Shown here piece by piece: positions 2,828 through 54,364 of a stretch of DNA of 58,346 bases (position 1 is the stretch's first letter; every line of letters starts with the position of its first letter). The translations under genes and the position numbers were made by a program. The DNA is from Elsinoe ampelina (Eukaryota). The notes under the pieces were generated by a model. That model made no database searches, was not told where the DNA came from, and saw only the letters and a list, made by a program, of their open reading frames with translations. The stretch lies in assembly GCA_010093995.1 (NCBI GenBank), contig ML992505.1, forward strand, positions 288,921-347,266, read 5' to 3'.

Positions 2828-5237
2828 GATTCGTGGGCGCGCGTCAGACTGTCAATGTCGCATCACGATCACGATGGTGGATTGGAGACTCAGAAGAGGA
2901 GAAAATTAGGGTTGTTGGGTGAAGGATGCATGCATATCCGCTATTGACGCGTCGATGCAACAGCGTTTTTTCCTCTTTTCCGCTACATGAGATTTCCCAA
3001 GTGTTTCACGGCTCATTTCTTTTGGCCAATCAGCGCCAGTCCTTCAGCACCGGTCCTTTGAGAACTCGATACTATATAGAAACTTCTCTGTGTTTCCTGT
3101 TCCTGTTGTTTCGATGAAGTACAATCTGTCCTGACACCGTCTTGATCGTACTCTTGCTCCATTCATCGGCGTGAACCATATGCGAATATCTGCTCAAGTA
3201 TACCCTAGCCGCCATCCGACAGAATGAACACCCCCAGACCGATTCAACGATTGTAGCCGACCTGCAAGGCAATTGAGCTTCCGGACTGTCCCGTTCTGAT
3301 TGGCGCAGGTTGTCCTGGTCCAGCGTTGTGGATAATAGGAGGTAGCTGCTTGGGCTTGGTCACCGAAGTGTCGGAAGGGTTTGTCCCTATAGTAGTAGCA
3401 GAGGTAGCTGTGCTTTGGTTGAGGGATGAGGAGGAAAGCCATGATTGGTTCTGAGAGTTCCGGCTCGACATGTTGCCTGTGGAAAGAGAGATCTGCTGAG
3501 AAGATTGCTGATATGACTTGATCCATCAATCCATCAGCGGACGTGGATGAACGGAATGGTCAGCAGCTTTATAGTAGGAGATATGAGCGCCGTCATGTGT
3601 ATAGAACTGACAGAAGGCCTTACCACAACCGCATTCACGCACGTCTCAGTGTAGCATGTTGATCCGCAAACACGGTAGTCTTGCTGATAGGAGGCATTCC
3701 GTCTGCAATTGGGCGCACAGCCCATGCACATGAGGCACACCGTCGATACATCTCAGGTGTGCGACGACTATAGTCATTAACCATGTCTGATAGTCCGTCT
3801 GTATGAGCAGATCGGTTTGGTCCTAGCGGCCTGCGTAGGGTGATCATCCCTGTCGGGCGAAGCGTAGCGCAAGCCACAACTCGATGATTCGTCGTATCTA
3901 GGAGATACAGCCTTCAGAAGCGTAACCATGGACCTGTCTCATGCTCCGAATACTACCCGTGCAATGAGATGGGGCGTTTCAAGTGTGACTAGCTCGTGAA
4001 GAAGGCGGCGATGGATATTAGGCTTCAGAGAGGTTTCGAGCGTCTGACAAACGCTCAGAGGCAGTTCAGCTCTCCACAGAGATTGCGACAAAAATCGACA
4101 ATGGTCTGGAGAATGTCCTGGTCCGAGCAGACAACCAAGGCGTTGCGAGCGGAGGCTGTCCCGCCTAGGTCTGCTCTCTACCACAGGTGCGATCATGGCA
4201 GGAAGAAAGAGACGTCTTTCGCTCACCAGTCTTACGTTCAGAGCTTTGTTCGAGAGGAGCCACCTGATCACTCGATGGAGAAGGCTTATCTGCGCTGTGC
4301 GATGGTTCGCTCGAGGTCCAATAGACATAAGCACACACTCAGTCTCTTTCTGACCTGCCCTGAAATGAGATGAAGGCTACAGCTCTCCCATAGTCAAAGC
4401 AATCAATACTCCCTGGTCAAGCAGTCTCAAGTGAGAGCGATGCGGAGTGCTGACGGCTCCACGTCTGGTCCCGAGCGGTGTCTCGCGACCGCCACGCACA
4501 TTGCTGGACCTCATAGGAAACGCTTCGACAGTTTCTTGGAATGACCTTTGCAGCACCTTCGTTAAGGTAGCGGAATTCCCGTGACCATGACTCTGTGGCG
4601 TAGATCAACTCCTGCTGCCACGTGGTCGAAGTAGGCGGATGAGCTGCTCCGAGCCACCCGTCAGCTGAGGAGACGTCGGCACTGACTCGAGCGCCATCAC
4701 ACCGTAGCAGTGGTCTGTTGGGCTTGCAATTCATCAGTAGCAGCTGGAGACGGGAAGTGCATTGACTCGGTCGCCACGTGGTTGAGAACATCTCATCGGT
4801 GGACAGGACACTGACAAGTTGATGGCGCACTGACCGAGTCGTGGCTGCGGCGCACGCTCCATTATTTCAACCATCTCTGGGAGATTGTGTCTTTCAGGTT
4901 CGAATGAGAAAAGATACGATTGAGTCATGTCGATGAGTGCCACGTGGTCGATGTGGAGATTGAAGGAAGCCAGGGTTGGAGATCAGCCTGCGGCATCGAG
5001 GCGGATCATCTCCGCAAGGAGTTCACGGACTTCAACGTCATATTGTGGCTTCCAATTGGCTATTGCCACTACAGCAAGATTATCTCTGAAACGCTTGTAA
5101 GATATCATGGAGATATGAAGATGGTGGTGCGGATGAAATACGAGTCTAGCTGCGGCACAAATGCCTCCTATCATAGGATGATTGATGTGGCCTGCACATC
5201 TCCCATGCTATACTCCGCCCGTCTTGTTGAGACCATC

Positions 5238-5954
5238 TCAGTGGGGACCGTACGCTGCAGCGTAGAACTCTTGTGGGCTTGCCCCAATGCTCTTCCTTTG
5301 CTCTTCTAAGAAATCATCTGGGCCTAGAGTCTTCTCGATGAATGTGTAGTCCTCAGGCTGGAGTGGATAGCCATATAGTTGTCCACATAACTTGGCAACC
5401 TGTAGATCTACTTTTGGGATACGGCTTAGATCGAAATGATTGCATGAGCGGCCAGTCGATACACCCATGTTTGTGCTTTGTGGTGCGTTCTGACTGTATG
5501 ATGTCGATGAGACAGTCGGGTACTGTCCAAAAAGCGTGGACATGGGTGTATGGATTGGTATAGGACCATTGAGTGCTTCCGCCATGTTCTGTGCGAGATA
5601 CCTGTCGCGATTCTTGCACTTGCCGAGATGGGTGGCCATGTGGGCAGGGTAGGATCGAGCCATGTTGCATGCGAAACAAATGCCATCTCCTTTGACGTAC
5701 GCTCGAGTCCCATCAGAGTTGGTACTGCCGGGAGGGCTTTCTGACCTGGGTTAGCTGTGTTATATGGTTGGCAGAAGAGCATGTACTCACTGGACCAGAT
5801 TGTGACCCCAAGACTATCCGTGAGACTATGTTCTGTGTCGATTAATTTGTGTCACATGCAAGTCTGGGGAATACTAACTCTTGAACACCGCTTGGATATC
5901 CTGGAAGACCAAGCTATAGTCCCGAGTACCGGCCTGGCCAGCTTGGGCAGACAT
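5238..5954 (-). CDS. C2HC zinc-finger family protein, array copy A (206 aa, 3 exons)
   Basis: GCCACCATG start at 5954. Exons 5954-5879, 5832-5791 (42 nt) and 5740-5238; introns GTTAGT..CAG and GTGAGT..CTAAC..CAG, both phase 1. Encodes ..GVTIWSK..RAYVKGDGICFACNMARSYPAHMATHLGKC.. (finger at 5616-5678). Confidence 0.8.
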
Positions 5955-7797
5955 GGTGGCTAGCAGATGCGGTAGTCGACTGCGCTTCAGGGGAAGGCTG
6001 ATGATCGGATGGCTTCAAGCAACGGAAGTTCTTATGCCTAATCCCGGAGGTTTCAAAGAGCTGAATATCATTCTGATGCTTCGAGCCATATCGAAAGGCG
6101 AATTTATAGGCGAGGGCTGTAGCACAGCATCCAACGTGTGTGCTCTCGAAACACTCAACATCGTCGAGAGGGTGTGCTCCAATGTCCAGAAACTCGAGAG
6201 ACTATGCTGGAATTGTGTCCTGAGACGTGATGCTTTCTTGCTAACAGAGATTCAAGACGTGTTTATGGGAGGCCTTGTGTTTGCCGCTGCGGACTTTCGA
6301 GTGGTACGACGCAGGAAAGCATTTGAGTGGCTCAGTTTCGTAATCCTCTCGAAATTTCTGGCGAAGGGAGTGTATCACAGGACTGGCGGTGAGCGCGACC
6401 ATTTGGAAGATGACACCATAAGGGAGGACAAAGCTGGTTCTCAACTTGTTTGTGGTGTCACAGGCGTCTCGAATGTCCAGAAACTTAAGGTTCTAGTCAA
6501 TATCCGCAATGTAGATTGCGACGCCAGCAGAACTGTGAAGTCGGCGGGCAGGGCTCACTGCCGACGGAAGCTTCACTGAGAATCACAGCCAAGTGTTGGA
6601 AAGACACAAGCCATGTCGATCTATTGACAGAGCCGCCGGAAATGATGTCGATCGCATTCCAATGTCTTGACAGGCTACTTTGATTGTCGCGGATCCCACG
6701 CCGGAGATCCCGAGTTTGGCTGCTGCTGGCGTCGAGATTCGAGGACGCCAGAGGATTTCGAGAGACATGGCGGCTTGGCAAAAGGGTGGGAGTTCTTCGA
6801 ACAATGACGACGTCCCTGAAAGGCGAGGAGAAGCCCTAGGTCACACCGAGGACGCGAAATGCGCATCATCGGCGGCGTCGTGTGGCCTCCGGACGAAGTT
6901 CCGCGTCGTGGCTGAGAAGATGCTCGAACCACTCGAGGCAAGCAGGGTCCATTTGTGGAAAGAAACTCAATACTTGCAATGATTTCGCCTGCGAGGGAGA
7001 AGGTAGAAAAGGATCGGGGATGAATGGCGTGGGTCGTGCTGGCCAATGGGTGATTTATGAAAACAAAGTCTTCCTCACCGCTCTGGTGTTGTTGAGACCC
7101 GTCTTCGGCCAGCAACTTCGATGGTACAGCTCGTGCGTGCATGATGGCCACTTATTCCCAGCATAGAGGCGGAAGAGAAAGGGCCCCTTTACTCAACGGC
7201 TGTGTACGAGTGCTCGAGTCAGGGCCGAGAAGACGGCATTTCCTTGGACCCGGTCCTGCAAGCGCGGGCATACCCATTGACTCTTTCTGGCTAGAGCTAC
7301 TTGCTTGAAAGTAATAGCGCGGGATACCGCATGTTCGAGAGCGGCCGGCGCATGCATGATGGGATTGCGTGGAAGCGAGGCACGTGTTGAGGGAGAGACG
7401 TTGATTGTGGATCAGCGAATCGCTGGTCGTTCCTCCGCACCGATCCGTCCCCCGCTTTGGTTGCCAATGCCATGATCTGCCCGTCAGAATGAGTTTGGGC
7501 GGATCGAACTCTCGTCCCATGTGATGAGACTATGTCCAAGATCTGATTCTGGCACGGTATGATGTTGGCAATTTCATAAATTCTTGTAGTGACACGATAA
7601 CGAACAGATACGAAGCATCCCGCCCCAAAAGTCCAGCTGAAAAGAACCCTTCACCCCCAGCCAATCATTTGTCTACAGCTCCATATGTGGCTGAATGGTA
7701 TTCCGTCCGGCTTGATACAAGTCTACTGTACATGATGCTAATGCAATGCATCGGAGCAGCTGAAAGTACAGATTGCCTATGAGTGCCAGCCCCTTGC

Positions 7798-8690
7798 TCA
7801 GCTCCAGTCCAAGTGACCATACATACTGCCAGGGTTTGCACCCTGATACCGCTGTTCCTCATCTCTCACAATCCCATCAATCGACCCGTACCCATTCATC
7901 TCCGTGCCAATGTTAAACAAGGGCGAGCTCATGGCAACATGCCACTGCCCATGAGGAGGATCGACCATGTACTGGCTGCCGTCTTCGTATGGAAAAATGA
8001 CATCGGAGTAGTTGCTGCCTACATTCCCATTGTTCATGGGGAATTCAGCCGGCGCCGCTGTCCATGTGGGTGGAGTATCAGAGTTGATGACTGACGATGA
8101 AGCGACTGTGTTTGATCTCTGCTGATGTCCCTGGCCGCCGAAAGCAATCGGAGCCACGGTCACACCAGGTTGGCTCCAACTGGACATCAGGTCGACATTC
8201 TGTAATTGATTCTGCGCTCTGAACGAACCTGGCACAGCGAAGTAGGGCCCGGAATGGGCATTGTCATTGGGCATGTCGAATCGGAACTGAGCATGCTGCC
8301 TCTGACGGAGCTGGAGCTCGAAGGACGCGTCAAAAGCCAACTCCTCGGCAGCACGCTGATCTCGGGTACCACGACAAGTGCTCAGGTGCCTAGCCATATC
8401 TCCAGAGTAGCTGCGCGGCCGCCTGCAGCGGAAACAGACGGTGGTACTTTGATGATTCCATCGCGATCTAGCAGTTGGATCTTCGACCTCTGCGAGATGG
8501 TAAGCCTACAGACAATCAGGACTTGTTGGGAGGGGTATGAACACACCTTGCCAGATACGTATTCCGCTGATACGACAACCATAGAAATCTGCATCAAGTC
8601 AGCAAGGATGTAGTGTTTGACACAAGTCTGCTTACGAAAGAGAAGGTACCGTATGAAAATGAACGCCCGCTCGTCAAGTTCACGCTCCAT
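7798..8690 (-). CDS. C2HC zinc-finger family protein, array copy B (262 aa, 3 exons)
   Basis: Exons 8690-8636, 8588-8547 (42 nt) and 8489-7798; introns GTAAGC..CTGAC..CAG and GTGTGT..CAG, both phase 1. Encodes ..GIRIWQE..RSRWNHQSTTVCFRCRRPRSYSGDMARHLSTC.. (finger at 8374-8436). Confidence 0.75.
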
Positions 8691-10856
8691 CCTTGCGAAT
8701 GATTGATTGCTCGACTGGACAGATGATGTTTGCACCTCTTCTGGGCGCGCAAGGACGAGCCCAGCCGACCTCCAAACCCACGCAGACCAACGATAGCAAC
8801 AGCTCGCAGATAGCGTAGCGCAGGATAAAACCGAATCAAGGCTTTACCGCGGGATCAAGCCTTTGCAAGAGCTAGGGAGATAGAAGTGTTGGTGATGATC
8901 GTGCAAATGCCTGCGGTCGCTCCTTCGAAACGATGACCAGCGAGTGCTGCTAGAGACTCGAGCTGTCAAATCGAGATGGCGTATTTCTGATGGTCCAAGG
9001 GAGATTCGGATCCTCTATTCTGGCTTTGCGGAGCCTCTAGTCAATGAGAGAGCCAGTCGTCGTCATTGTACCATTCGAGTCAGGCACTTCCGTAGATCCT
9101 GGAATGTCGAGGTCTTGAAAGCTAAGAAGTAGCTATAAGGATGTTGTCTCTGTCCAAAGATGATGAGTGTTTGCAGCGGGCAATGGATATGTATCTGCGA
9201 CTGATGCGAGTCTCCGGGCGGATGTGCACGAGACGGACCTGTGCAGTCTTGCCGTGTGCTGGACTGCTCCTCCGACTCGGACGTCAGAGTCTATTTTATT
9301 GTCGTATCGCCTAGGCTGTCTTGTCTGCTCCGTTGCTCTGTCCCTCAATCACAGAACAATGAACCTGTGATTGTCAGCACTGAAGGAGGACACGGCCACG
9401 AAAGAGGGATGTACTAGACGCTCACTAGCCTCCCAAACCACACTCGTAAGTCTGTTGTAATTGTCGAGACTCGTTGCTACGTATCCGACGAGATATCCTT
9501 CGGAGCAAGTTGTTTTGCTGGAGTCTTGAGAGTGATCAGTGAAGTGTGCAGCAAGCCGGCCTCTCAATCGAGATGGTATGGCGGCCCAACCAAGTAGGCC
9601 TGAGGCAGGTTTTGGCGACATCTTCGCAGCGTCGGACTGCCGCCGCCTCTGGCGCTAGTTTTGCCGGCTTGATCCTTTCGCTGCATCGCCCCTGTGTGTA
9701 GCTCACCTTTGACGTATGTGAACATCGAGACCGCATTTCAATAAGTGCTCAAGGCTCCCTCGACTCGCCTGTTCATAATCAATGCTTCTGCAAGAATGGT
9801 GTTGCGCGATGAACAACGCGGAGCGCAGAACGAGGGGATGATCTTCTGCCGTCGTTAGCGTTGTTAGAAACCTAGAATTCTAGATTTCAAGACAACCGCA
9901 TTGGTGGACGAGCAAATCAGAGCCCTTTCATCAATTCTACCTGCTACCGCGGACGGTCATACTGATGATCTCGTGCCAGATCACCATGGGAGACCGCAAG
10001 AGCGGCGAGTATTGATCGAATCTTGCGAGCAAGAGCAGCGCCCTATCACGGCGATGCCTCGAATACTCATGGCGATTTTCCGGCCACATCACAGGAGCAC
10101 GCGCTGTGTTCCTGCATGTGTGTCGTCGAACGAGCCAGTGGGACAGGAGCCGCACAGGGCTAAGAGCTGCACCTGTGTGACGCTTCCGCCCTGTCAAGGC
10201 AGCAATTTTTTGCATCATTGGAGCTCTCATACAGGATGATCGACACCAGTCTAACGCTTCGTGACGTGCAGCTCGACAATGGTTGAACGCAGAAATTGAC
10301 GTGCAAATGGTGAGGAAAGTGACATTGCAATCAGTGGATTCTTGACCTTTGAGCAGGAATCCGACATCCGCCGGGATCGGGCGGAACCGGCACGCCGAAA
10401 GCTACCCAAAGATGCCTTTCCGACCTCACCGTATCACATACACGAACCATCATTCTAAGCATGTCGAGTCCAGTTATATGTACCCGGCTACCATGATGTC
10501 ACATGTTCAGCGTATCTGGCGATTCCATCTTCTTGCTGGATATGAAAGCCAGGGCTATTTATTGGTACGAAGGCATCAGTGTCCGTGAGGGCTCGTCCGT
10601 AGAGCAAGTCGTCGACTTCCTTGACCATGCTTGGGCACCATAGAAAGAGACAGGCTGATGGTTCAATTCACCTGCTTAGACGGTGCCTGACCCGGGGGAG
10701 AGGCATCAAAGCGGAGTACATGACAGCTGTAGCTCGCATAAGATATCGAATTAGTGGTCATCCATCACGTCACCCGGAGATGTCATATCAAGAAGCCTCC
10801 AAGGAGTCTTGTATGGACTGAACGCTGATAGTATCGTTTCTCGTTCCGAGTCATAG

Positions 10857-11740
10857 CTATGGGAGTGGTTCATATGAGACATTCCATGGCTGTATCTCTC
10901 CTTCGAAGCTCTCGAAGGCCTGGTGTAAATCGATAGAGGTCGGTTGACCCCACGCGGCGGTCGCTTGCCCTTGGGAGTAATCGGGATCCGATGGCTGAAC
11001 GAAAGGGTAGTTCATGTACGGGTCGATGGATATCTCATCGGTCTGGTCGGAAGCCATTCGGCGATGCTGAGTTGAGTTGGTCGACGTTGAAAGCTGATGC
11101 CAATGGCCTCGAGTTGGGTCCGAACTTGGGTAAAGATTGTGATACTCTGTAGTGGGTACGGGGAAGGTCAGGTTGCCGATAGTAGGTACGTGACTTGCAG
11201 ACCAAGAGGTAGGACGGATCGATGGTCTGGTTGATGATCCAGCTTGCATGATGGTGTTGGTGTCCAGATCAGCCGAGATCATCAGAGGCTGGTCATCCAC
11301 ATTCCCATGGCTTGATGGGCCCATCTGATTCATTGCTTGGGGGACGTTGAAACTTGGGCGATGGGTGAAACTGGGAAGATCTGAAGTTGAAGCTGCTCGC
11401 GCTCGTCGGTAATGATTGCCAATGCTTCTACATTTGCCGACATGCTCGCCAATTTTCTTTTGGTAGCCGAATTTCTGATCACAAAACAGACAAGCCCCCC
11501 TCGCATCGAAGAATGATCGGATGTTGGCCGTCCGGAATGGCTCTGCCTTCCCTGCGGGAGTCAGCTACGGACAGGATACTTGAAATCCTTGACACACTTC
11601 TCCAATACATGACTGCTACAACATCTTGCCAGTCACGAGCTGGGGGTAGTCAGTGTGATGAACGACCGCCGGGTGGAGACAAGCTTACCATTGACCAGAT
11701 CCTTGAGCCCGTGCAGTATTTCGTTGTCTGTTGCCGGCAT
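10857..11740 (-). CDS. C2HC zinc-finger family protein, array copy C (262 aa, 3 exons)
   Basis: Exons 11740-11689, 11639-11598 (42 nt) and 11551-10857; introns GTAAGC..CTGAC..CAG and GTGTGT..CTGAC..CAG, both phase 1. Encodes ..DVVAVMYWRR..RSFFDARGACLFCDQKFGYQKKIGEHVGKC.. (finger at 11430-11492). Confidence 0.82.
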
Positions 11741-14029
11741 CTTGGTAGTTGGTGTTGGCTAAGGTCATCAATTTGAAACAAACGATGCAAGTTACCAGCC
11801 AGCTGGTTGTTGTTTTATGGTTCTTTGGAGAAGCCAGACCCAAGCACATACTTATGTTCCTAATGTGCTGTCCCATGTCTGTTTCTTCTAGGCCTGTGTT
11901 TGTATTGATCCATGCATCCTTGAAACTGTAGTCTAGGGTGATACGTTCCACCGGCTGACCAGTGCGGTCCTTGTTCGTGCCTTGACCGTGGTCTGTGGAC
12001 GCCACTTGACCGGTTGGCGGAGGACGATATGGCCATGTCTCTGCACCATGCTTTGTCCCTCTAGTGAGTGCAGGCAGATATTCGGGAATCGAGCGCCCGT
12101 TGAACGGGTCGTGTGTCCGCGGCTGGTGTTTGTCATATTTAGCGTCAAACATAGCTTCTCCATTACAAGTTGGCACGGTCCGGTGCCTCAGGGGTAAGCA
12201 AGGGCCGCACATTTTGAGGGTCCTGCATCTTGATAGCGAGTCGAACAAGATCCAGACCAGCGTCAATACTCCATTGAACTTTGAACGCTTCTGGCAAGAG
12301 ATATCAATGATGCAGGCAGTACTGTGGAGCACCTGCACCAGAGCGATAGTACCACGTTTGTGGATACTTGTGGAAAAGCAGGGCAAGCTGGACGTCAAAC
12401 GGCTGCTCGGGCCCAGACCTGATGAATGTAGAGGCGCCAGAATGAGACGCAGATCGAGGTCGCCGCACATGGGCAGACAGACATGTGCAAGCACGCCCAG
12501 AGTCAGAGTGCAGCAAATGTTGACCAGGATTGTTGTGGAATGCTCTTTGAGGGTCGCCCAAACGGTTCCAACGCCCGCAACAAGGAGCCTTCAAGGAGCG
12601 CTTGGCCTCCGCCGTGCATGTTACGGGGTCGCCCCTGGTGGCCTGTGCTGCTGTCAGCATGCTCGAGCACCAGCTCCAAAGCAGCGTCTCGATGGACGGA
12701 GACTCCCAGCACGACAGGAAGGGGTCGCATGTGCAGGTCGATTGCGAAGTCAGACTACACAGGAGCGGCTGATATGTTCCATCCTGAATTGTAGTCAACC
12801 ATGGCTATGAGTGCTTTGCCAGAAATCAGAATTCGAGGGACCATCTCGGCCTTGACCTTGATGGTGTTGTTCTCTTATCTCGAACTCTACTGCATCCTTG
12901 CCCAGTGTTGTCATTGTTAGTGCAGCACATCGGACCTCACAGCTTTGAGATAGGGTTTTGGAGATCAACACTACCAGAGTCGCAGCGCCGACAACTGGAT
13001 CTTCACCTCGGTGGGCCATGCAAGTCGAACATGGACAGAGCAATTGATGGAAAAGTCTGTAGTGAGCTCGGGGATTTGCCCACAGTTTCCGCGTCAACGT
13101 TTTGCCGAAAGTCTGCGACTCTCTCCTCCACTATTGCAAAACTCCATCATTCCCTCCCATACTCCTACACGACTCGCCGGCATTTACTTCATCAGCACTA
13201 TAGCGCAGGGACGATCATTACCAACTGGTCGGATCCTCGCCAAGGAAGCTTAGCCGCACGTCAATTGCTTGACCACCTTTGACATCAACGTGAACTTTGG
13301 ATCGACATGGCACCACTCGGGATCTTTGGCGATCGGACTCTGCTGTCAGTACCTTCCAGGGAAAGGTGACGATGTTTCCTTCCGCAAGATCATACAGTCA
13401 GGCTATCACTGTTCATAACCTTCGCTGCATGTCTCGACATCTATCGTCTCCATGATCAGAGTAGAGGACACAAGAACAACCTGCTCATCAACCCGACTGT
13501 TCAGTTGAGGCTCTGGTAACTTCAAATTTTACATCAACGCTTGCGTATACCGACGTCATGTGCCTGATCGCATATGCAAGATGTTGATCAAATCAACTTT
13601 GAGCCACAAAGTCACCGCGTTATCCTTCCCTCGTTCACGAAGCAATCCAGGTTCAAAGCAATGTACTGCCGGACTGCCGAACGAGCACAGAAGAGTATCA
13701 CAAGACCTTGCCGGGATGCTCCTTGCTAACTCGAGGGCGTGCAGTCTGTCGACTCTGATAGGTCCCAAGCCGTGCCAGTCACACATTTGAGCGGGGAGCG
13801 TCTTGCTCGTTCTAGCACTAATGATCAGCATTGCAAGGTCACGCTGATCGAAATAGACGCCTCGTCATGATCTGAGATGATGAGAATAGAGTAGCAACGA
13901 TGAGAAGACTCTTGACATGCTACCAGACGCCCCCTTCCGCAACTCTTGGTGAGCAGTGTAGGTGTATAAGAAAGCCACGAATCTCTGCTTTCTGCTCTGT
14001 ATCTCTTCATACAGTCTGCCCTCTTCATC

Positions 14030-23132: not shown

Positions 23133-24390
23133 ATGTGCGGCCGTTACGTGCTGCATATGGTAAGGTCACTGCCTGCAAAATGAGGACACAACTAACATCC
23201 TTCAGCGGCCATCAGAGGTCAGATATCGACTTCAACAAGACAACATGCCAGCGGACGAATGGCCTGACGACGACGACACTACGATCAGGCAGAGCTACAA
23301 CTTTGCGCCAGGCTATCACGGACTGGTCTATCGCGCAGATGTGCCTGACTCTGGAGCAAAGAAGCAGAAGGATGTGGGTGAGGCCGGCGGAGAAAAGGAC
23401 TCTGGTGAAGCACAAGAGAGAGAGACGGATGGACTCGCGACCAAGGAGACCAAATATAAGCTTCAAGGCATGAAATGGGGACTCATCCCATTCTGGACCA
23501 AGAGATCACCGGATTACGGCAGCATGATGCGAACGATCAACTGTAGGGATGACTCTCTGGCGACATCAGGAGGCATGTGGAACACCATGAAGCAGAAGAA
23601 GAGGTGCATAGTCGTATGCGAGGGATTCTTCGAGTGGCAGAAGAAGAACAACGGCAAGGAGAAGATACCGCATTTCATCAAGAGGAAGGATGGACAGCTC
23701 ATGTGTTTTGCCGGCCTGTGGGATTGCGTCAAGTATGAAGACGCCGAGGACAAACTTTACACTTACACCATCATCACCACCGACTCGAACAAGCAGCTCG
23801 GATGGTTGCATGATAGGATGCCAGTCATCTTCGACGCCGGCTCAGAAGCAATTCGGACATGGCTAGACCCTGGACGAGCAGAATGGTCGAAAGAACTACA
23901 GACCCTGCTGAAACCCTTTGAAGGAGAATTGGAGCTCTATCCAGTGGATCGGTCAGTGGGTAAGGTTGGGAACAACAGCCCGAGCTTTGTAGTGCCCATT
24001 GACAGCAAGGAAAATAAGAAGAACATCGCCAACTTCTTTGGCAATCAGGCGGCCAAGAAGGAGGAGGCCTCGCAGAAGGTGAAGCAGGAGGAAGAAGACG
24101 AAGACCCGGAGTCGAACGCCCCGCTACCCAAGCCGGAGGATGACGCAGAGATCAAACAGGAGAAGAGTCTAAAAAGAGAAGCACCCGAGGGGTCAGAGAC
24201 GACTGACTCGACACCAAACAAAGCACACAAGAGTGAGAAGGGAGATGATGCATCCAGCAAAGCAAAAAGTCCAGCGTCACAACCTACCTCGGGACGAAAG
24301 ACGAGAAGTTCGACGAGCAACAACACGACGGCCAAGAGTCCGTCAAAGGGCGTTGGCAGCAAGAAGATTACTAGCTTCTTCGGAAAGTGA
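23133..24390 (+). CDS. SRAP-domain abasic-site processing protein (HMCES/YedK/DUF159)
   Basis: Exon 1 (23133-23159) MCGRYVLHM supplies the catalytic Cys2; intron 23160-23205. Motifs SYNFAPG, MKWGLIPFW, INCR, RCIVVCEGFFEW, FAGLWD and WLHDRMPVI; C-terminal KITSFF (PIP-box-like). Confidence 0.93.
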
Positions 24391-26124
24391 AGTGTTCAGC
24401 TAGGTAGATACTACCACACTTTCCAGATGCTGTGGTGATTACTCGTCTTGGCATCTGGCCGGTAATGACCCGAAACGGCACATCGAGATTATTAGGGGAG
24501 GTGATGAGATTCCAGTCTGGTAGGATAGTAGTACATGGTTCGGGACAGACGGGAAATGGTGCCTGACAGCGGGAGGCTCAACAAGGCTTCTCCCGGTGAT
24601 TGACGAGGCGGTCAGAAAGTCAACCCACGCTTGCGAAATCCAAAAAAGAGGGCTTGCGAGATGAGGCGGAAAAGCTTTGGGTCGAAACCTTGAACTGACT
24701 CTGGAGAGAGCTTGACTCGATTTATCTACGCGAGATGAGGCTGCAGGTTGGCAGTATGTGATACGATCTAGAGATGGTATTGCAGGTAGCTCTTCATGCT
24801 GGAGAGGCTTGGTACGATGAGATACCGAGGCATCTTGAGCGAGATGCAAGTAGAAATGCAGGCAGAGTGCATGAGACAACGTGGATTGAAACGCCAGTGC
24901 ACAGGCAAATACTACCAGCATGACAGGATCGAAAGGACGGGTGCATGATCTGTGACGACGCTGTGGCAGAATGTGGTAGTTTCTCAAAGCTTCGCGGAGG
25001 GAGACCTAGACCGAGCATGTCCAGCATCCCTGTCAAGGGCCCTGCAAAGATCTCTTCGTAAATTGCTGGTCGGGAGACGGATAGATGACGCTTCGGCTAT
25101 TGAGCAAGCAGATTGGCTGACGGGGTAGTAGTGCCTGGCTACAGTAGTTCGCTGTGGGGGAACGCGGCGACAGGAAGAGAGGAGATGCAGCGAGAATGCG
25201 AGATCGACGGAGATGTGAGCGCACGAGAGTGGGCTGCAGGGAAGAGCAAGAGAAGAGGGCAGGTCGAGTCGGCTACAGCACCAGCTCACACCTGCGTGGA
25301 CCATCAAGATCTGTACGACTCACAACAAGATCGAGACACAAGATGTTCCCTGTGTACTGTAACCTGGCACCTGTCCTCGGATCACTCGACCGAGAACAGC
25401 CATGACAGACGCACGACGACGGTTCGAGATGAGATGCGAGTGACAGGACTGTCTGCGCGAAATAGAAACCCACGTGGCCGACAAAAGGAAGGCGTCGCAG
25501 CCAGCGTTAGAGATAAGATTGATCTGTCAATGGTAGGACCATCTTCGCGACATGACTGGCCGGGAGAACATGCGCCACGCCCGCATTAGCAGTGTTTTAG
25601 CACCAGAAGATTGACAAATACCTGCTGCATGAGCCCTGCAAGAAGCTGCACCGGCCTGCACCGACGCTGCAAGATTTGTGCGGGAACACGCCCGCCCGCA
25701 CGGCTCACCACGCTCTCCACCGCTATGACCGAGCCCTTGTCCGTCACACCACCCGCACTCTTCGATCTAGAGTCGTCCGGATGAGGGAAACAGTCTGGAC
25801 AACCTGGTTTGTCTGTCAAAATGTACCTTCTCCTTGTTTAATATCTACAGATCTGCGACCATCGCCCTCCGCCTGCGAATCTTTCGCTTAAGCACTATAA
25901 TACTACTATACGTGCAGCGACCCGAGGCTGATACTTTTTCGATTGCACCGAGTATAGCGACACGACGAAACGAGGGCTTTGTCTGCGATACTTGTACCCT
26001 GTCAATTGCTCGTGCTGGACATGAGAGATACCACGACTAATTCCCAGCGATTGTTCTTTGCATTCTAAAGCGGCGTGCGGAAGTGGGACAATCGAGCTGC
26101 TCACCTGCAAACGCAACATTCGCA

Positions 26125-29100
26125 ATGGCTTCCATTTTCGATATGCTCACACGACAGCAACCACAATTCCAAACACGTCAGGCATTATTGGTGCTGGGAT
26201 TGCAGCATGATTTCATCTCTCCGGAAGGCGTAATACCAGTCACAAACGGCGACAGGTTTCTGCGGCGGATCAAGAACCTGGTCCCGACTTTTCGAGCAAA
26301 TGGGGATGTCTACTGGGTACGGACAGAGCGTGGAAGCTCATCGAAGCCGAGAGGTCGCCAGGATCATGGAACCGTTGTAGTCACAAACGAACCGACGCCT
26401 ACTCCTTCACGCCCTTCAGATGACCTGTCCGATCGTGTAGATTCGACACTTGGGACCGATGAGTCAACCGCAAAGGATACAAAGGCCGGTACAGAATCGC
26501 AGCCTTTACTGGTGTCGAGACCAAAGTATCAGACTGACCCCGAACTATTCTTGAAATCATCATCCGACGGACCTCGTTGTTGTGATTCTACTACACACGG
26601 CTCATCGTATATACCCGACGTCGAAGCTCTGCAGTCACCCAAAGATACACATATTGTCAAATCGCACTATTCAGCATTTCACGGTACCCAATTGCTTCTC
26701 ACTCTCCGCGCTCGGCTGGTCACAGAGATCTATCTCGCTGGATGCATGACAAATCTCTGTGTCTACGCCACTGCCCTCGACGCTGCCCAACACGGTATCC
26801 AGATCAACATTGTCGAAGACTGTCTAGGATACAGGACGCCGCATCGCCACGCAGAAGCAATCAATCGTATGATTGACGATATGGGTGCTTACATGACCAC
26901 GAGCAAGACTGTCATGACCCGGTTTGAGGAAGGCGACGACCTCGATCGTATGGACAGTAGAGGTGCTAGCCCAGAATTGGAGGAAGTTCGTTCGAACGTC
27001 GACGTCCAAGAGACTGGGCCATTCAGCTACCCGACCTCAATCAATCATCCCAATAGTAGCACCATGGCCACGAGGCCCACTTCTGCGGAGGACCACCTAC
27101 CACCAGTCGGACTCCCGCAGGCTGGAATTGTGGTACCAGAATACGTCGCTTCTTCGTGTGCGCTGGGCCATGTGCCTGCAGCTCTCGAAGTTGATGAAGG
27201 TGTTTCACTTGAAGCAGAGGATAAACCGAAGCCAGAGTTCCCTGTCTACCAGAACATGGAGGCCATCCGCAGCATTGAGCGGATAGACACACAGACCAGG
27301 ACCGAGGAGTGGCGAAACTCTTGCTCACCAGTGGGGACCACTTCTGACACCAGGAATACCCAGGAAGAAGAGCTTTCCGCTGCTCTCGCACATCCTTCCT
27401 CGTCGCGACCAGTCTCGAAAGAGGCGACACCAGAGTCGGCCGAGGGCAGGACTAGCAAGAAGCGGCGGTCCGCGGATCTGGATGACGTCCACCTTGACTT
27501 GTCCGCGCAACATGTCCGAGAGACGTCGACAGCCCCTACCTCGACTCATGACTCCGACCAGCAGCCACTTCAGAAGAAGAATAAATGCATACCCAGCCTG
27601 GCAAACTTTCCGACCAAGGTCCCAGGTGACTTTATTGGCAAAGGCGACACGACCATCTCTTATGATCTGCTATCGCCAATAGAAGCAGACAAAGCTTTCA
27701 ATACACTCCTCACAGAGGTACCATGGCAGCGAATGAGCCACGTGACAGGTGACGTCCCACGACTCGTCTGCTGTCAAGGCACCTTCCTGGCAGACGGCTC
27801 AATGCCAATCTACCGCCATCCATCCGACTCCACCCTCCCACTTTTCCACTGGTCGCCAACTGTAGATCGCATTCGCCGCCTTGCAGAAGCCCACGTCGGC
27901 CACAAGCTCAACCACGCCTTGATTCAGCTCTACCGCAGCGGTCAAGATCACATCAGCGAACACAGCGACAAAACCCTCGACATCGTCCCAGGTAGCCAAA
28001 TCGTCAACGTCTCACTCGGTGCCCAACGCACCATGCGCCTAAGAAGCAAACGCATGAAGTTTCCCCCTACCTACTCGTCCCTGTCACCAGAACCCCCACA
28101 ACATAACACGGAGGCCACAGAAACCACAGACGCGTCCACCATTACCCCCGCCCCACAGACTCTCAGCCCTCTCGAAATCGCCCGCTCAGCCTCCATGCCC
28201 CCGAGTCTCCGCACCATCTTCGCCCGCACCATCTTCGCCTGCACCGTCCCACAAGACGGCACCCTCCCGGCGAGGACAACAGAACGCATCCCCCTCCCAC
28301 ACGCCAGCATCCTCTCCTTCGGCCTGGGCACGAACGCGCACTTCCTGCACGGCATCCAGCCTGACCGCAGGCTAGGGCACGATCTGTCCCAAGCAGAGAA
28401 AGCCTACGGAGGGATGAGGATCAGCTTGACTTTTCGCGAGATAGGGACGTTCTTGTCCGGGGATGAAGGGAGGATATGGGGTGTTGGAGCAAGGGGGAAG
28501 GAGAGGGGGGAGGCGGGGAGGGTGGTGAGCGGTGATGAGGAAGAGGGGAGGGGTGAGGCGGAGGAATTGTTGAGGAAGTTTGGGAGGGAGAATCAGGGTG
28601 GGGATATGGAGGGGGAGGGGGTTTATGAGGGGGGGAGTGATGTGTTGCATCTGAAGGTGAAGCCGGTGGCGGGCCCGATGGTGTTTCTCAGCGGGGAGGA
28701 GGGCAGGGACGGGGCGGTGATGGCAGCGATGAAGTTCCTGGGCATGGAAGCTGTCATCACCCCTGCGCCAGAATTGGGCCTTGAATCCTACCAGCAACCT
28801 GCTACCGCCCATTCCGCGACTCCCGTGGATGCTCCGACGCCCCCTCAAGCCGACGAACGAGACACGACCTCTTCGTCCCCGCACACCTCCTCACAACCTC
28901 AGTCCACTACGACAACCAAGGTTCTCAAAGCAGAAGGGAAACCCTTCCTCAACGCCCACGCCCACCCCATCCCCCCACCAACACCCACCCACCCCCTACT
29001 CCTCCGCGACATCGACGACCACCACGCTGAAGTCCGAGGCTGGATCCCCATCCTATCTTACCTCTCCCTGTACTACCCCCACTCAACCCCCTCATCCACC

Positions 29101-29484
29101 TCGCCCTCCACTTCCCGGACCCAAGCAGCGAGGCAAAGCGAACTCTTCTCCCTCCTGCCTTTGCTGGAGGTATACACCCAAAACCGCATGCCGGAGACCA
29201 GAGACGTGCTCGCGGACCTGGAGGGGAGGTTAGCGCTCTTCTCACCGGAGTCGTTCACGGTAGGACCCGGCGAGGGGACGCCAGCAGGAGCAGGAGAGGG
29301 GCTAGAGGCGGAGGGGGTGGACGGGAAGGATGTGGGAGGCTTAGCGGGGAGGGGGATCGGGGTTGTGGATGTCGCGTTTTTGCATCTTGTGCGACTAGCT
29401 TTGGTCGGGGAGGGAGAGGGGGAGTGGGAGGGGTTGAGGAGGTGGGCGGGGAGGGTTGACCGGGTCGTTAAGAATCTGGGGTAG
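26125..29484 (+). CDS. Isochorismatase-like + AlkB-type 2OG-Fe(II) dioxygenase fusion protein
   Basis: N-terminal cysteine-hydrolase motifs (LLVLGLQHDF, KSHYSAF, LAGCMTNLCVYATALDA). AlkB core VPRLV..LNHALIQLYRSGQDHISEHSDKTLD..VSLGAQR..HGI..RISLTFR carries the HxD...H...R residues. The C-terminal part is divergent. Confidence 0.88.
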   Translation: MASIFDMLTRQQPQFQTRQALLVLGLQHDFISPEGVIPVTNGDRFLRRIKNLVPTFRANGDVYWVRTERGSSSKPRGRQDHGTVVVTNEPTPTPSRPSDDLSDRVDSTLGTDESTAKDTKAGTESQPLLVSRPKYQTDPELFLKSSSDGPRCCDSTTHGSSYIPDVEALQSPKDTHIVKSHYSAFHGTQLLLTLRARLVTEIYLAGCMTNLCVYATALDAAQHGIQINIVEDCLGYRTPHRHAEAINRMIDDMGAYMTTSKTVMTRFEEGDDLDRMDSRGASPELEEVRSNVDVQETGPFSYPTSINHPNSSTMATRPTSAEDHLPPVGLPQAGIVVPEYVASSCALGHVPAALEVDEGVSLEAEDKPKPEFPVYQNMEAIRSIERIDTQTRTEEWRNSCSPVGTTSDTRNTQEEELSAALAHPSSSRPVSKEATPESAEGRTSKKRRSADLDDVHLDLSAQHVRETSTAPTSTHDSDQQPLQKKNKCIPSLANFPTKVPGDFIGKGDTTISYDLLSPIEADKAFNTLLTEVPWQRMSHVTGDVPRLVCCQGTFLADGSMPIYRHPSDSTLPLFHWSPTVDRIRRLAEAHVGHKLNHALIQLYRSGQDHISEHSDKTLDIVPGSQIVNVSLGAQRTMRLRSKRMKFPPTYSSLSPEPPQHNTEATETTDASTITPAPQTLSPLEIARSASMPPSLRTIFARTIFACTVPQDGTLPARTTERIPLPHASILSFGLGTNAHFLHGIQPDRRLGHDLSQAEKAYGGMRISLTFREIGTFLSGDEGRIWGVGARGKERGEAGRVVSGDEEEGRGEAEELLRKFGRENQGGDMEGEGVYEGGSDVLHLKVKPVAGPMVFLSGEEGRDGAVMAAMKFLGMEAVITPAPELGLESYQQPATAHSATPVDAPTPPQADERDTTSSSPHTSSQPQSTTTTKVLKAEGKPFLNAHAHPIPPPTPTHPLLLRDIDDHHAEVRGWIPILSYLSLYYPHSTPSSTSPSTSRTQAARQSELFSLLPLLEVYTQNRMPETRDVLADLEGRLALFSPESFTVGPGEGTPAGAGEGLEAEGVDGKDVGGLAGRGIGVVDVAFLHLVRLALVGEGEGEWEGLRRWAGRVDRVVKNLG

Positions 29485-30020: not shown

Positions 30021-31973
30021 TCACCCAACAACATGCTCATTCGCCCTACTATCCCCCTTCATCAGTCCGCAAACACTACAAGTCCAATACCTATGCTCCA
30101 TAAAAGTCCTACACCTCCTACACGCCCACCCCAACGTCTCGGGCTGATGCAGCATGACGCTCTGTCTCTGCACCCGTTCCAGGTTACGCGCTGCCGAACG
30201 ATCGCTTAGGATGCCGCTTGTTCCACTCGTGCCTGTCGAGGAGGAGTGGATGGAGCGCCGGTTGGTGGTGTTGGTGCCGATGGTTTGGGAGCGTGCCAGG
30301 ATGGCGGTGGCGGACGGGGAGCGTTCGAGGCCGCAGGCGTCGCAGGCCAGGTAGTCGAGGGGGTTGATGCAGGTGCAGATGTCGCAGGTCCAGGTAGTTG
30401 GGGATGGGTCGGTTTGGGCAGGAGGAGGGGGAAGGGGCCGGGATTGAGTTGGCGGGGTGGGGACGGAGCGAGGGGGGTCTGATGGGCGAGAGGGCTTACG
30501 TGGTGGTGCTTGGTTGGACAGGGAAGGGTGGTTTGGCGGTAGTGGTGGCGGAGGCGATATTGAATGTGAGTGTGGTGTGGAAGTGCTTGATGGGGGTGTG
30601 GCGCGGCGTTTGACCCTCTCTACGCTGCCTTTCCAGTCGTGTCCGTCGGCTGCTGACAGGGCCCCGGCGAGTTCACTGAGGACGGAAGAAGCACTGCTGC
30701 TCCGACTGGTACTGCCTCTGACTGGCCGCTTGTTGGCGGAGAATGATGATGTCGGACCACTTATGACCGATGGGGGGCCGAGACCTCCCGACATGATTAC
30801 ATCGCCGTCACTATCCGGAGTGAATGGTCGAGGTCGCTTTCCTGCCGTTCTCGCCTCGTCCTGAATGTGGGAGGGTATCGGTGCACTCCCAGATCTAGGT
30901 ATCGAGCGAGCGACAGGTGCTGGTAGGGGCGATTCTGAACGTTGTCGGGTTGAAGATGTGGATGCTGATGTGGTTCGCATACTTTCTTTCAATGCCCATC
31001 TGATTTGTTCTTCCTCGGACATGTGGTTTGGTGGTGTTCTACCGCGTGAAGGTGCTGAAAGTTCAGACAGACCATTCTCAGCACTCCATGTCAGACCATT
31101 GGACAATGAAGTCGGCCCATCCCAAGACTGCTCCAATTTGGCCATTTCTTCTTCTTCCATCAGTTCCAATAGAGCTTCCGCAATGGCCCTGTCGTTGGCA
31201 TCGTCATCATCCGCTTTGGTCCGGATCGTCCGTTGAGAGCTTTGTCGTGCTAAGCTGTCCGCGTTTGAGTCACCAGAAGCACAACCTCGCTGTATCGTGT
31301 TCCGTCGTTCCACCGCATCGGCTATGACCTTGCGTGCATCTTGGCCAGGAATGATCCTCTTCCCGCCCAACTTGAATCCGCCTCTCTTGTCCTTGTCCTT
31401 TTCAGAACGCTTCTGTTTCTCCGCGTTCTGCTTGGCGAGCCTTCGTAGTTCACTGTCAGGGGGCATGCGACCGCCACCCAGCTTGCGTCCTTTGGTCAGG
31501 AAGCCTTCTCCAGTGTAGCCCTTGAAAAGAAGAGTCTCGTGTTCGCCGCGAAGCTCATCCCAAAGAGCATGAAATTGGGCATCGTGCGGACCATGAACAA
31601 TATGTGACAGCTCGTGCAACATCGTGTCAACGCATTGTTCTATTGGCATGAACGAAGAAGGTCGATGTGAGAAGCGTAACCGGACGCATATCTTGTGGCC
31701 ATGATTGATATTCAGACCCAAGAGCCGTGGATCCTCTGGTAAAAATTCCGTGAGTGTGCCAACGTGCCATCCGCGCTTTCTCATGATGGGTTTCACGAGA
31801 GACGCAATTTTCCGTAACCTGTGGAGAGCTTCTGCGGGATCAGGCAGTCCAGTAAGATGCTCGTACGCCTTGATCAACGAATCTGCTTCGTTCAAGTTTG
31901 AGGCATAATTCTTTTGCGCTTGTGATGGACCTCCAGCCCAGCTGCCTCCCGGCTTGCTGAACCTTCGGTCCAT
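30021..31973 (-). CDS. WSS1: DNA-dependent metalloprotease Wss1 (WLM domain) with UIM-like motif and two RanBP2-type zinc fingers
   Basis: Motifs VKPIMRKRGWHVGTLTEF, LLGLNINHG, TMLHELSHIVHGPHDAQF (HExxH) and GYTGEGFL. UIM-like SEEEQIRWALKESM; fingers WTCDICTCINPLDYLACDAC and WACRRC..WTCSVC. Confidence 0.93.
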   Translation of the reverse strand: MDRRFSKPGGSWAGGPSQAQKNYASNLNEADSLIKAYEHLTGLPDPAEALHRLRKIASLVKPIMRKRGWHVGTLTEFLPEDPRLLGLNINHGHKICVRLRFSHRPSSFMPIEQCVDTMLHELSHIVHGPHDAQFHALWDELRGEHETLLFKGYTGEGFLTKGRKLGGGRMPPDSELRRLAKQNAEKQKRSEKDKDKRGGFKLGGKRIIPGQDARKVIADAVERRNTIQRGCASGDSNADSLARQSSQRTIRTKADDDDANDRAIAEALLELMEEEEMAKLEQSWDGPTSLSNGLTWSAENGLSELSAPSRGRTPPNHMSEEEQIRWALKESMRTTSASTSSTRQRSESPLPAPVARSIPRSGSAPIPSHIQDEARTAGKRPRPFTPDSDGDVIMSGGLGPPSVISGPTSSFSANKRPVRGSTSRSSSASSVLSELAGALSAADGHDWKGSVERVKRRATPPSSTSTPHSHSISPPPPLPPNHPSLSNQAPPRKPSRPSDPPRSVPTPPTQSRPLPPPPAQTDPSPTTWTCDICTCINPLDYLACDACGLERSPSATAILARSQTIGTNTTNRRSIHSSSTGTSGTSGILSDRSAARNLERVQRQSVMLHQPETLGWACRRCRTFMEHRYWTCSVCGLMKGDSRANEHVVG

Positions 31974-32677
31974 CGTGTTTCTTTGAAGGACCCGAATGAT
32001 GCCAAAACAGCGGAGTATCGACCGCTGACTATTGTAGGAAAAAACCTGGGCGGGGTGCCAGGTTAAAAAGATGAAAAGGATGTTTTGCAGATCGTCTGCA
32101 ATCCAAAATTACCATACCAGACTGCAGGGCACAGGAGCTGTGGTGCGTGGATTGCCATTCGTCATCGAGGGGCGTCGAGTGGATGGAGCCCTGATGAGAA
32201 GGCCGCGAATGCAGACAGGACAAGAGCGCCTAGACTGTGGCCCACTGCGGACGCCGAGGATTATATGCAAGATCTGCCAGTCGTGGATCTGAGCCCACTA
32301 TTCACCAGCTGATGGAACAAGTCTGGTTTCCAGAAGATTACGGACTCGCTCGCGGTGTTGGTAGCCGCAAATAGGTGGTTTGTGACTGGTTGCGACGGTC
32401 TTGCCGGCGGCTGTGTTCGCGCGCGTGCACAGATGGAAATTGGGTCAAGTCAAGGGCGAAGCGGCTGTGGTTGATGAAGACAGAGTGATCGGCGTTTCGA
32501 GACGCCAAGCACCGACACTCGACGAGCCCCGCCAAACATCATGTGGTCCGTGGATGCCTGCGTAATGCGAGTCCAGACATGCTGTCTGTCCCTGCGGTAC
32601 ATACACTTGGCAATATCAATGCGTATTAAGTCACGGACTATCTGACGAAGCTATCACACGAACGACTTCGCGCGAAC

Positions 32678-40947: not shown

Positions 40948-41874
40948 ATGACGCCTTCTTTGAATCGACACAATTCCACTGGCACGAATTCATCCAGGTA
41001 CAATCGATCACGCCGAGACAGCGCCAACAGTCATGCAGCAGCAAGCTCAGCCTCCGCCATCATAAGTCCAACAGACGTCGACCTCCTCAATAACATTCGT
41101 CAGTACCTACAAGATAATGGTTTCGAGGATGTGGCTGGTATCATGGTCTTCAAGAGAAGATCCATCAACGACCAAGAGGGTCGATCTCGGTCCCACTTCT
41201 TCGGCGCGGGGATCTGCTGCTATTGTAACGTCTCCCGTGGATATGTCGCAAATATGTGCAAGCATCTCAGCGACTGCCCGCTTGCTAATCGTCATCTGGA
41301 CCGACTAGAGTCGAGCAACACTCGTCAAGACCTCGTCCCTGGTCGACCGCGATCGCAGACCGATGTCAGACCCAATAGACCAATACTACCACAGCCGCCG
41401 TCACTGGTGATTCCCGATTTGAGCACTCAAGTCACTACTGGTCGTCGGTTTCCAAGCAATCAGTTGTCGCCACAAGATGCCTTCAACAACGATGCTTCGA
41501 GGAGCTCTTTCCATCGCACTCCCACTGGGACATTTCACTCCGCCCCATCGTCTCAGCTCGGGGATATGTCTGATTACATGCAGGCCACAGACAGCACCCT
41601 CTCGGAAGCACCCATTACTGTGGGGAACCAGGACTATAGCGACGGCATTCCCATGATGAATGACATCGGCTTCATGGCTGGCGGGGATACCTATGAGCAT
41701 TTCATCCAGCCCCAATCAAATCAGGTCATGAGCTTCCTTGATGATGGTGTCACGGAGTCGAGCGCAACACAAGATCTCATGGGGTTGGAACAGCTGGATC
41801 CATCCACAGGCATGTCGCAGTCCGCGTGGGATCAGTGGTGGGCCTCGAACAATCAGTTCCGCGGACAATCATAG
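40948..41874 (+). CDS. C2HC zinc-finger family protein, intronless copy D (308 aa)
   Basis: Single ORF containing LLNNIRQYLQDNGFEDVAGIMVFKRR..RSRSHFFGAGICCYCNVSRGYVANMCKHLSDC (finger at 41215-41277), which aligns with copies A-C. The S/Q/D-rich tail ends in AWDQWW. Confidence 0.8.
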   Translation: MTPSLNRHNSTGTNSSRYNRSRRDSANSHAAASSASAIISPTDVDLLNNIRQYLQDNGFEDVAGIMVFKRRSINDQEGRSRSHFFGAGICCYCNVSRGYVANMCKHLSDCPLANRHLDRLESSNTRQDLVPGRPRSQTDVRPNRPILPQPPSLVIPDLSTQVTTGRRFPSNQLSPQDAFNNDASRSSFHRTPTGTFHSAPSSQLGDMSDYMQATDSTLSEAPITVGNQDYSDGIPMMNDIGFMAGGDTYEHFIQPQSNQVMSFLDDGVTESSATQDLMGLEQLDPSTGMSQSAWDQWWASNNQFRGQS

Positions 41875-54147: not shown

Positions 54148-54283
54148 TGTCACTACATGTTTGAGTTGTAGCGGGGAGAAAGAGGTGGAGTGAGAACAGG
54201 CGGGGTTGATAATGTTGTAACTGGCAAATCGGATCGAGAGACGTGTATTTCATTTAGAGAGCTACAATAACCGATTTATCTAC

Positions 54284-54364
54284 TGTACGTGCGCTGACTT
54301 ATTAGTGCCAGTTCTTTAGTACTAGAGAAGCTATACTAGCCTTCTATTACAACACTCCCCCTCT
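54284..54364 (-). repeat. Polypurine tract and start of the 3' LTR of the copia element
   Basis: Minus strand reads AGAGGGGGAG (54364-54355) followed directly by TGTTGTAATAG. The nearest ..ACA terminus is at 54284, so the LTR end is tentative. Confidence 0.6.

Follow-up and report, generated by a model that had tools for sequence, protein, structure and literature searches.

A family of C2HC finger genes in Elsinoe ampelina: three spliced tandem genes, an intronless paralog and a predicted dimerising helix-strand element

Classical C2H2 (Krueppel-type) zinc fingers are recognised by the ligand spacing C-x2-4-C-x12-H-x3-5-H. A lone finger can bind DNA specifically when basic regions accompany it, as in the GAGA factor (PDB 1yui), a C2H2 protein that multimerises through BTB. 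Among the other small fingers, the UBZ4 type of RAD18 (PDB 5vf0) has C2HC ligands with about 11-12 residues from the second Cys to the His, the U1/matrin/JAZ-type fingers are C2H2, and BED fingers follow the broad signature C-x2-C-xn-H-x3-5-[HC]. Here we describe a family of genes for single C2HC fingers in a stretch of 58,346 nucleotides of the Elsinoe ampelina genome (assembly GCA_010093995.1, contig ML992505.1, positions 288,921 to 347,266), in the following called the window. Three of the genes, g1, g2 and g3, form a tandem array on the minus strand, and the fourth, g4, is an intronless paralog elsewhere in the window. We concluded that g1-g4 are real and transcribed, and the splicing of g1-g3 was confirmed.

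The models of g1-g3 were read from the sequence. On the minus strand, g1 (5238..5954) consists of the exons 5954-5879, 5832-5791 and 5740-5238, stop included, and encodes 206 amino acids (aa). The gene g2 (7798..8690; exons 8690-8636, 8588-8547 and 8489-7798) encodes 262 aa, as does g3 (10857..11740; exons 11740-11689, 11639-11598 and 11551-10857). The ATGs at 5954, 8690 and 11740 are thus spaced by 2736 and 3050 bases. In each gene the frame closes only when two short introns are spliced, namely 5878-5833 (46 nt) and 5790-5741 (50 nt) in g1, 8635-8589 (47 nt) and 8546-8490 (57 nt) in g2, and 11688-11640 (49 nt) and 11597-11552 (46 nt) in g3. Exon 1 measures 76, 55 and 52 nt in g1, g2 and g3, therefore intron 1 is in phase 1 in each of them, and because the middle exon has 42 nt in all three, intron 2 is likewise in phase 1. 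All six introns start with GT and finish with CAG. Judged by the branch-site consensus, a CTAAC-, CTGAC- or CTTAC-like site lies near the 3' end in five of them, the exception being intron 1 of g1. Each third exon contains a C-x2-C-x12-H-x3-C finger, at 5616..5678 in g1, 8374..8436 in g2 and 11430..11492 in g3. The stop-to-stop open reading frames (ORFs) of the three genes contain exon 3 only, and the database search brought up no window-encoded protein for g1 and g2 and, for g3, only the 158-aa fragment P0003.

Contigs of four public runs (X1, X2, X3 and X6), which came from three studies, were compared with positions 4500-12500. The runs have no RNA on record (they are labelled 'RNA?' or '?') and were taken as RNA-derived because their contigs carry spliced forms; stretches that lacked coverage in single runs were not counted as evidence. 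All six predicted introns were found as exact contig joints, with CT..AC ends on the plus strand. The joints of the g1 pair (skips of 50 and 46 nt) were present in three of the four runs (X1, X2 and X3), those of the g2 pair (57 and 47 nt) in two (X1 and X6), and those of the g3 pair (46 and 49 nt) in all four. The original prediction, made from the letters of the window, had proposed three minus-strand genes with two phase-1 introns around a 42-nt exon, hidden in the ORF track, and both the architecture and the concealment were borne out. The finger strings that it quoted are present at 5678-5616, 8436-8374 and 11492-11430.

Transcribed stretches were also found upstream of the three genes. 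The one upstream of g1 (5955..7187, provisionally placed on the minus strand; 1233 nt with 15 ATGs) belongs to X1 record 2, which covers 5127-7187 and also holds spliced g1. Upstream of g2, the stretch 8691..10300 on the minus strand belongs to X1 record 3 (7566-10300), which also holds g2. It includes an extra minus-strand intron at 9414-9365 (50 nt, GT..AG), whose joint was detected in all four runs, and an alternative joint, a 182-nt skip of 9525-9706, was seen in X6 only; after splicing the stretch amounts to 1560 nt with 17 ATGs. The stretch upstream of g3 (11741..12500, likewise provisionally on the minus strand) belongs to X1 record 4 and continues beyond 12500: the record is 2478 letters long, its positions 2-1925 match 10482-12500, and about 553 further letters follow. 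These stretches are either long 5' leaders rich in upstream ORFs (uORFs) or overlapping non-coding transcripts, and the contigs cannot tell the two apart. The introns upstream of g2 suggest either that the leader is itself spliced or that a separate non-coding RNA undergoes splicing here. No Pfam match was obtained in the upstream stretches, an Rfam scan of 4500-13500 returned no family at gathering score, and by the G+C content of third codon positions the coding parts were not separable from the leader ORFs. A plus-strand ORF at 5953-6576, between g1 and g2, looked like a leucine-rich repeat gene; it was not called a gene, since neither ESM Atlas (no usable match) nor Pfam (no family) recognised it. 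Long stop-free frames were noted upstream of g3, a minus-strand frame with 301 codons (11685-12590) and a plus-strand frame with 266 (12010-12810). Neither had a Pfam match, and the stretch is transcribed.

The fourth gene was found when all six frames of the window were scanned with the pattern C-x2-C-x(10-14)-H-x(3-4)-C. Only four sites were present, all with x12 and x3 spacing; three were the fingers of g1-g3 and the fourth (41215..41277, plus strand) was in g4. The motif C-x2-C-x12-H-x3-C was thus observed four times, against a mean of 0.08 (maximum 2) in 200 first-order Markov simulations, and a stricter motif that includes the Y, M/I and L/V positions occurred four times against none in 200 simulations. 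Located at 40948..41874 on the plus strand, g4 encodes 308 aa including a Ser/Arg-rich N-terminal extension of 40 residues; its protein is identical, letter for letter, to database protein P0004. It lies 29 kb from the g1-g3 array on the opposite strand. By blastp (E 6e-10 to 3e-3) the paralogs resembled one another over no more than 49-84 residues, with an identity of 21-33%; the original prediction had seen no similarity by eye outside a module of 60-65 aa. Between the three repeat units of the array the DNA showed nothing beyond chance matches of 13-18 bases and no repeats.

Within the aligned module the introns of g1-g3 occupy the same columns. The intronless g4 reads through helix, strand and finger, so that splicing brings the products of g1-g3 into colinearity with an unspliced paralog. 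The common module of the four proteins is about 75-85 residues long and comprises a helix, a hydrophobic strand and the C-x2-C-x12-H-x3-C finger. Exon 1 encodes the N-terminal helix, the 42-nt exon 2 a short hydrophobic strand with Trp usually as its last residue, and exon 3 the finger and the tail.

Relatives were found in other scab fungi. A word-based search returned P0001 of E. batatas (262 aa, 87% identity, same exon model) for g2 and P0002 of the same species (277 aa, 78% identity) for g3. P0002 is annotated with intron 2 read through, which adds 15 residues; intron 2 is thus 45 nt in E. batatas versus 46 nt in E. ampelina, and the sole length difference between the two genes falls within it. 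With exon 3 of g1 the same type of search gave nothing at E<=10. A 61-position profile of the finger region was then searched against 1,835,955,588 representatives with a cut-off of E<=0.001. Nineteen proteins were retrieved and eight of them share the family architecture: P0001 of E. batatas, P0004 (g4 itself), P0005, P0010 and P0016 (cluster member P0027) of E. australis, of which P0005 is the relative of g4, P0006 and P0018 of E. fawcettii, and P0012 of Sphaceloma murrayae. The family clusters that bear an organism name, seven of the eight, are all from Elsinoe or Sphaceloma, the eighth being g4. The remaining 11 matches were multi-finger or unrelated proteins, eight of which had Pfam C2H2-type matches. 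The search also brought up P0008, an unnamed ENA protein of 641 aa with about seven or more tandem C-x2-C-x12-H-x3-C fingers, each preceded by a Y-L-K-[ND]-[FY] motif, and with no relevant Pfam match; it may represent a separate, unnamed C2HC repeat family.

By these comparisons the family is lineage-restricted, being detected only in the Elsinoaceae as far as HMMER could see. The array itself is conserved: judged by locus tags, g1-like and g2-like genes adjoin in E. fawcettii and in two strains of E. australis. For g4 the position varies between species. In E. australis a g4-like gene comes one or two locus tags after the g1-like and g2-like genes, whereas g4 of E. ampelina lies 29 kb away on the other strand, which points to an insertion or rearrangement that separates the two species. 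In a tree of the module a g2 clade of four species was supported at 98/98 and the g3 pair at 100/99; five of the nine inner branches stayed open, and the branch leading to g1 is long. Because the g2 clade spans four species, the duplications took place before these species separated, for g2 at least, and on this sequence comparison we regard the paralogous family as old. Across the 11 aligned rows, which cover five species including E. ampelina, six columns are invariant, namely the four ligands, one Arg and one Tyr. The original prediction had spoken of an old, lineage-restricted family that it did not recognise; the g2 clade and the conserved neighbours, the exclusively Elsinoe or Sphaceloma origin of the named family-like matches and the lack of a Pfam match all agree with this. 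No description of the family was found in the literature searched, as far as the titles and abstract openings of the papers listed go.

By sequence the finger comes closest to the classical type. The spacing x2, x12, x3 was kept in all four window copies and in all 11 aligned rows. The fourth ligand is Cys instead of the His of the classical consensus, which makes the finger a C2HC variant. When the 11-row profile was compared with all PDB sequences the best solved match was finger 11 of CTCF (PDB 1x6h; E 0.075, 16.3 bits), itself a C2HC finger, followed by other C2H2 fingers. The family shares with the classical fingers the C-x2-C-x12-H-x3-ligand spacing, a hydrophobic side chain (M, I or L) three positions ahead of the His and, in the models, the strand-strand-helix arrangement; most of the non-family matches of its profile are C2H2 proteins. 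Unlike in classical fingers, the core aromatic residue is the invariant Tyr, two positions after the usual Phe. The last ligand is Cys, there is one finger and no array, and an N-terminal helix and strand are predicted to pack onto it.

Pfam did not recognise the finger. The three exon-3 translations of g1-g3 matched no family at E<=1, including zf-BED and the C2H2 type, and neither g4 nor seven database members of the family matched any family at E<=0.01. None of the ten scanned proteins reached the gathering threshold of zf-C2H2 (PF00096 and kin). At E<=10 the ten gave no C2H2-type, zf-BED, zf_UBZ, zf-met, zf-C2H2_jaz or Sgf11 (PF08209) match; three unrelated sub-threshold matches appeared instead, to Treslin_STD (0.29), BH3 (0.029) and DUF6255 (0.032).

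The module was modelled with AlphaFold2 for g4 residues 36-135 on an 11-row alignment, giving a confident model with a mean predicted local distance difference test (pLDDT) of 83.2 and a predicted template modelling score of 0.72. The model consists of a helix (6-21), a strand (29-35), the strands 49-55 and 61-63 and two helices (65-74 and 76-92), and in it helix, strand and finger are predicted to form one compact domain. When the finger was folded alone (AlphaFold2, pLDDT 73) the strands 9-11 and 18-20 were followed by a helix (21-31) and a long second helix. A strand-strand-helix arrangement around the four ligands was thus predicted in both models, with no zinc included in either.

Structural comparison gave weak neighbours only. 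Neither the module nor the finger model had a Foldseek match in PDB at E<=0.001, and neither reached Z>=5 in VIA-align against 48,161 chains. The best VIA-align neighbour of the module was the N-terminal finger of TUT1 (9j8p_A; Z 4.1, root-mean-square deviation (rmsd) 2.3, 45 aligned). For the finger alone a tied group was obtained, consisting of a TRAF-type finger (Z 4.2), GTSF1 (Z 4.0), the JAZ double-stranded RNA-binding finger 2mkn_A (Z 3.9), the RAD18 UBZ4 finger 5vf0_B (Z 3.9, rmsd 4.2, 42 aligned; Foldseek E 4.4, rank 2), Mod5 (3eph_A, Z 3.7), the U11 small nuclear ribonucleoprotein chain 8r7n (Z 3.4), Sgf11 (2lo2, Z 3.0; 3m99_B, Z 2.5, with no Pfam PF08209 match) and the U11-48K CHHC finger (2vy5, Z 2.9). 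The GAGA factor 1yui appeared in the Foldseek list of the finger without significance (E 8.5, TMq 0.47). No BED finger structure was among the matches listed by Foldseek and VIA-align, all of them weak, which does not exclude one. In the ESM Atlas the g4 module reached a best feature score of 0.90 with unnamed clusters, and its structure rows lay below the bar of the tool and serve as leads only. Structure thus does not settle the class of the finger in these models, and hence whether the ligand would be DNA, RNA or ubiquitin.

A prediction with two copies of the module (ESMFold2) scored 0.40, above the pass mark of the tool, against 0.02 for the best of three controls, with a contact agreement between runs of at least 49% and a partner pLDDT of at least 64. 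In a benchmark on a microbe set 21 of 30 solved same-chain pairs and none of 23 solved single chains attained this mark; in a eukaryote set 17 of 29 solved same-chain pairs did so. The predicted interface is symmetric and is built from helix residues 11-22 and strand residues 26-35 in the numbering of the module model. The strand runs antiparallel to its twin (28 with 33, 31 with 31), and the helix makes contacts at 11, 14, 15, 18, 19 and 22. The module is accordingly predicted by this model to homodimerise through the helix and strand of exons 1 and 2. As the helix comes from exon 1 and the strand from the 42-nt exon 2, the conserved micro-exon would encode the dimer strand.

The charge of the proteins is divided. 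The finger with its flanks was basic in all 12 proteins (+2 to +9, pI 8.5-11.9), and the tails were acidic in all 12 (-2 to -17), with 40-52% S/T/P/Q/N/G and 7-12% aromatic residues, a composition much as originally described. Among orthologs the module is kept and the tails diverge fast apart from short islands, such as P-x-E-D-G-[ST]-Q-Y-x-V-[DN]-P in the g2 group. The ESM Atlas model of whole g4 had a mean pLDDT of 0.41, which fits a disordered tail; the tails are probably disordered, as judged from the model of g4.

The reading that we put forward, with somewhat less than an even chance of being right, is that the four proteins are regulators that bind nucleic acid as dimers, most probably as transcription factors whose acidic tails act as effectors. 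The DNA-binding regulators with activator-like tails of the original prediction are a plausible reading. The proteins would be intracellular and most likely nuclear. The helix-strand-finger domain would pair by antiparallel strand-strand and helix-helix contacts and so present two basic fingers; as DNA-binding transcription factors, the proteins would recruit partners through their acidic tails. The paralogs could pair with one another, and the kilobase-long, ATG-rich transcribed stretches upstream might provide translational control. The GAGA factor likewise has one finger of the classical type with basic segments on its flanks, with the difference that GAGA uses a C2H2 finger and BTB multimerisation, and the family a small helix-strand element predicted to dimerise. 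A more elaborate form of the proposal, which we consider rather unlikely, is a hitherto undescribed, Elsinoaceae-only class of transcription regulators in which a new helix-strand element, encoded by exon 1 and the micro-exon, dimerises two single C2HC fingers, so that homo- and heterodimers of the paralogs would form a combinatorial switch gated by the kilobase-long uORF-rich leaders. Several points weigh against the main reading. A single classical finger alone rarely gives sequence-specific DNA binding. The structural neighbours of the models are all weak and tied (Z 3-4.2) and span RNA-, ubiquitin- and DNA-binding fingers. The dimer prediction ran without an alignment and with modest pLDDT (65-69), and in the eukaryote benchmark the mark was reached by only one of seven true homodimers that lacked an older solved relative. 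The contigs cannot place the long upstream stretches in the same mRNA as the coding parts, and for those of g1 and g3 they leave the strand undecided too. The orthology of g1 to the 'g1-like' proteins is left open by the tree and rests on neighbouring locus tags.

The nucleic acid could instead be RNA. The finger is followed by a long basic second helix, as in the U1/matrin/JAZ-type fingers (TUT1 9j8p, JAZ 2mkn, Mod5 3eph), whose structural scores for module and finger are among the best (Z 3.7-4.1, within the range of a common arrangement), and the proteins might act in RNA processing or stability. The best neighbours, which also include U11 8r7n, U11-48K 2vy5 and GTSF1, and the basic flanks of the finger speak for this. 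We nevertheless hold it to be unlikely: all Z values are 4.2 or lower and tied with unrelated rows, as expected of a common arrangement; unlike the family the fingers of this type are C2H2, zf-met and zf-C2H2_jaz gave no Pfam match at E<=10, and acidic tails suit activators better. A role as ubiquitin readers, that is as adaptors in DNA-damage or protein-turnover pathways with a UBZ4-like (RAD18/NEMO-type) finger, seems improbable to us. The C2HC ligands, the near-identical spacing and the hydrophobic-x2-H-[LV]-x2-C helix end do resemble UBZ4, whose ligand pattern the family shares; the RAD18 UBZ-ubiquitin structure 5vf0 ranks second in Foldseek, and three genes with DNA-repair-type Pfam domains (SRAP, AlkB-like and WLM) lie between the array and g4. 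Against this, neither structural score is significant, zf_UBZ was not matched by any family member, and strongly basic flanks and a dimer element are foreign to UBZ. The repair genes are at least 12 kb away, and in E. australis the g4-like gene adjoins the array by locus tag.

The original prediction had compared the finger with the BED type and considered domestication of a transposase, and for this part of it no support was obtained. Remnants of a BED-finger/hAT transposase are very improbable: no zf-BED, hAT, RNase-H-like or other Pfam family was detected in any member, the units share no repeats or DNA similarity, and the spacing is classical, with a family profile that draws mostly ordinary C2H2 proteins and CTCF finger 11 as its best solved match. 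The broad BED signature is formally satisfied by the ligands, and one weak structure row of the ESM Atlas belonged to a ZBED1-like cluster (TM 0.46, below the bar of the tool). We give no more credit to the idea that the transcripts are non-coding or the frames decaying, with the finger similarity as a relic. The long, ATG-rich upstream stretches would fit it, as would g1 with its long tree branch and its lack of a relative in the word-based search. All four paralogs have, however, intact frames, and the ligands persist in all 11 rows from five species; full-length relatives exist at 78-87% identity, and the intron positions are conserved.

The surroundings of the four genes were also inspected. 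At a distance of 4 kb from the array, the minus-strand ORF 504-1232 contains a Zn(2)-Cys(6) cluster domain of the fungal type (E 9e-5). Three adjacent ORFs between 23164 and 32108 group domains of the DNA-protein crosslink and alkylation repair type: a SRAP ORF (23164-24390, plus strand, Pfam E 5e-66), an ORF of 1147 aa (26041-29484, plus strand) in which an isochorismatase is joined to an AlkB-like 2-oxoglutarate-Fe(II) oxygenase, and a WLM (Wss1-type) protease with a RanBP-type zinc ribbon (30021-32108, minus strand). The end of the window (54001-58346) is an AT-rich block (GC 0.30) with a TpA/ApT ratio of 1.93 and a (CpA+TpG)/(ApC+GpT) ratio of 0.32, compared with 0.55 and 1.29 in the first 54 kb. 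By the usual thresholds for calling repeat-induced point mutation (RIP) the block is RIP-like, and it says nothing about g1-g4.

Part of the family is missing or truncated in the protein set of the source genome, and its relatives are labelled 'hypothetical protein'. For now the wider importance of this narrow family is limited, given a finger of a common type and a function that we infer. For a genus of crop pathogens the present analysis contributes four real genes that are backed by RNA. A new domain is defined as well, in which a finger of the classical type is joined to a predicted dimerising helix and strand; Pfam has no model for it, and no structural neighbour is clear. The match between exons and structural elements would be a tidy case of exon-domain correspondence. 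If the proteins are regulators, the genes would be clade-specific control genes in the scab fungi, whose host-specific biology is poorly understood. If, beyond this, they work as a dimeric switch, a clade-specific circuit could control traits peculiar to the scab fungi.

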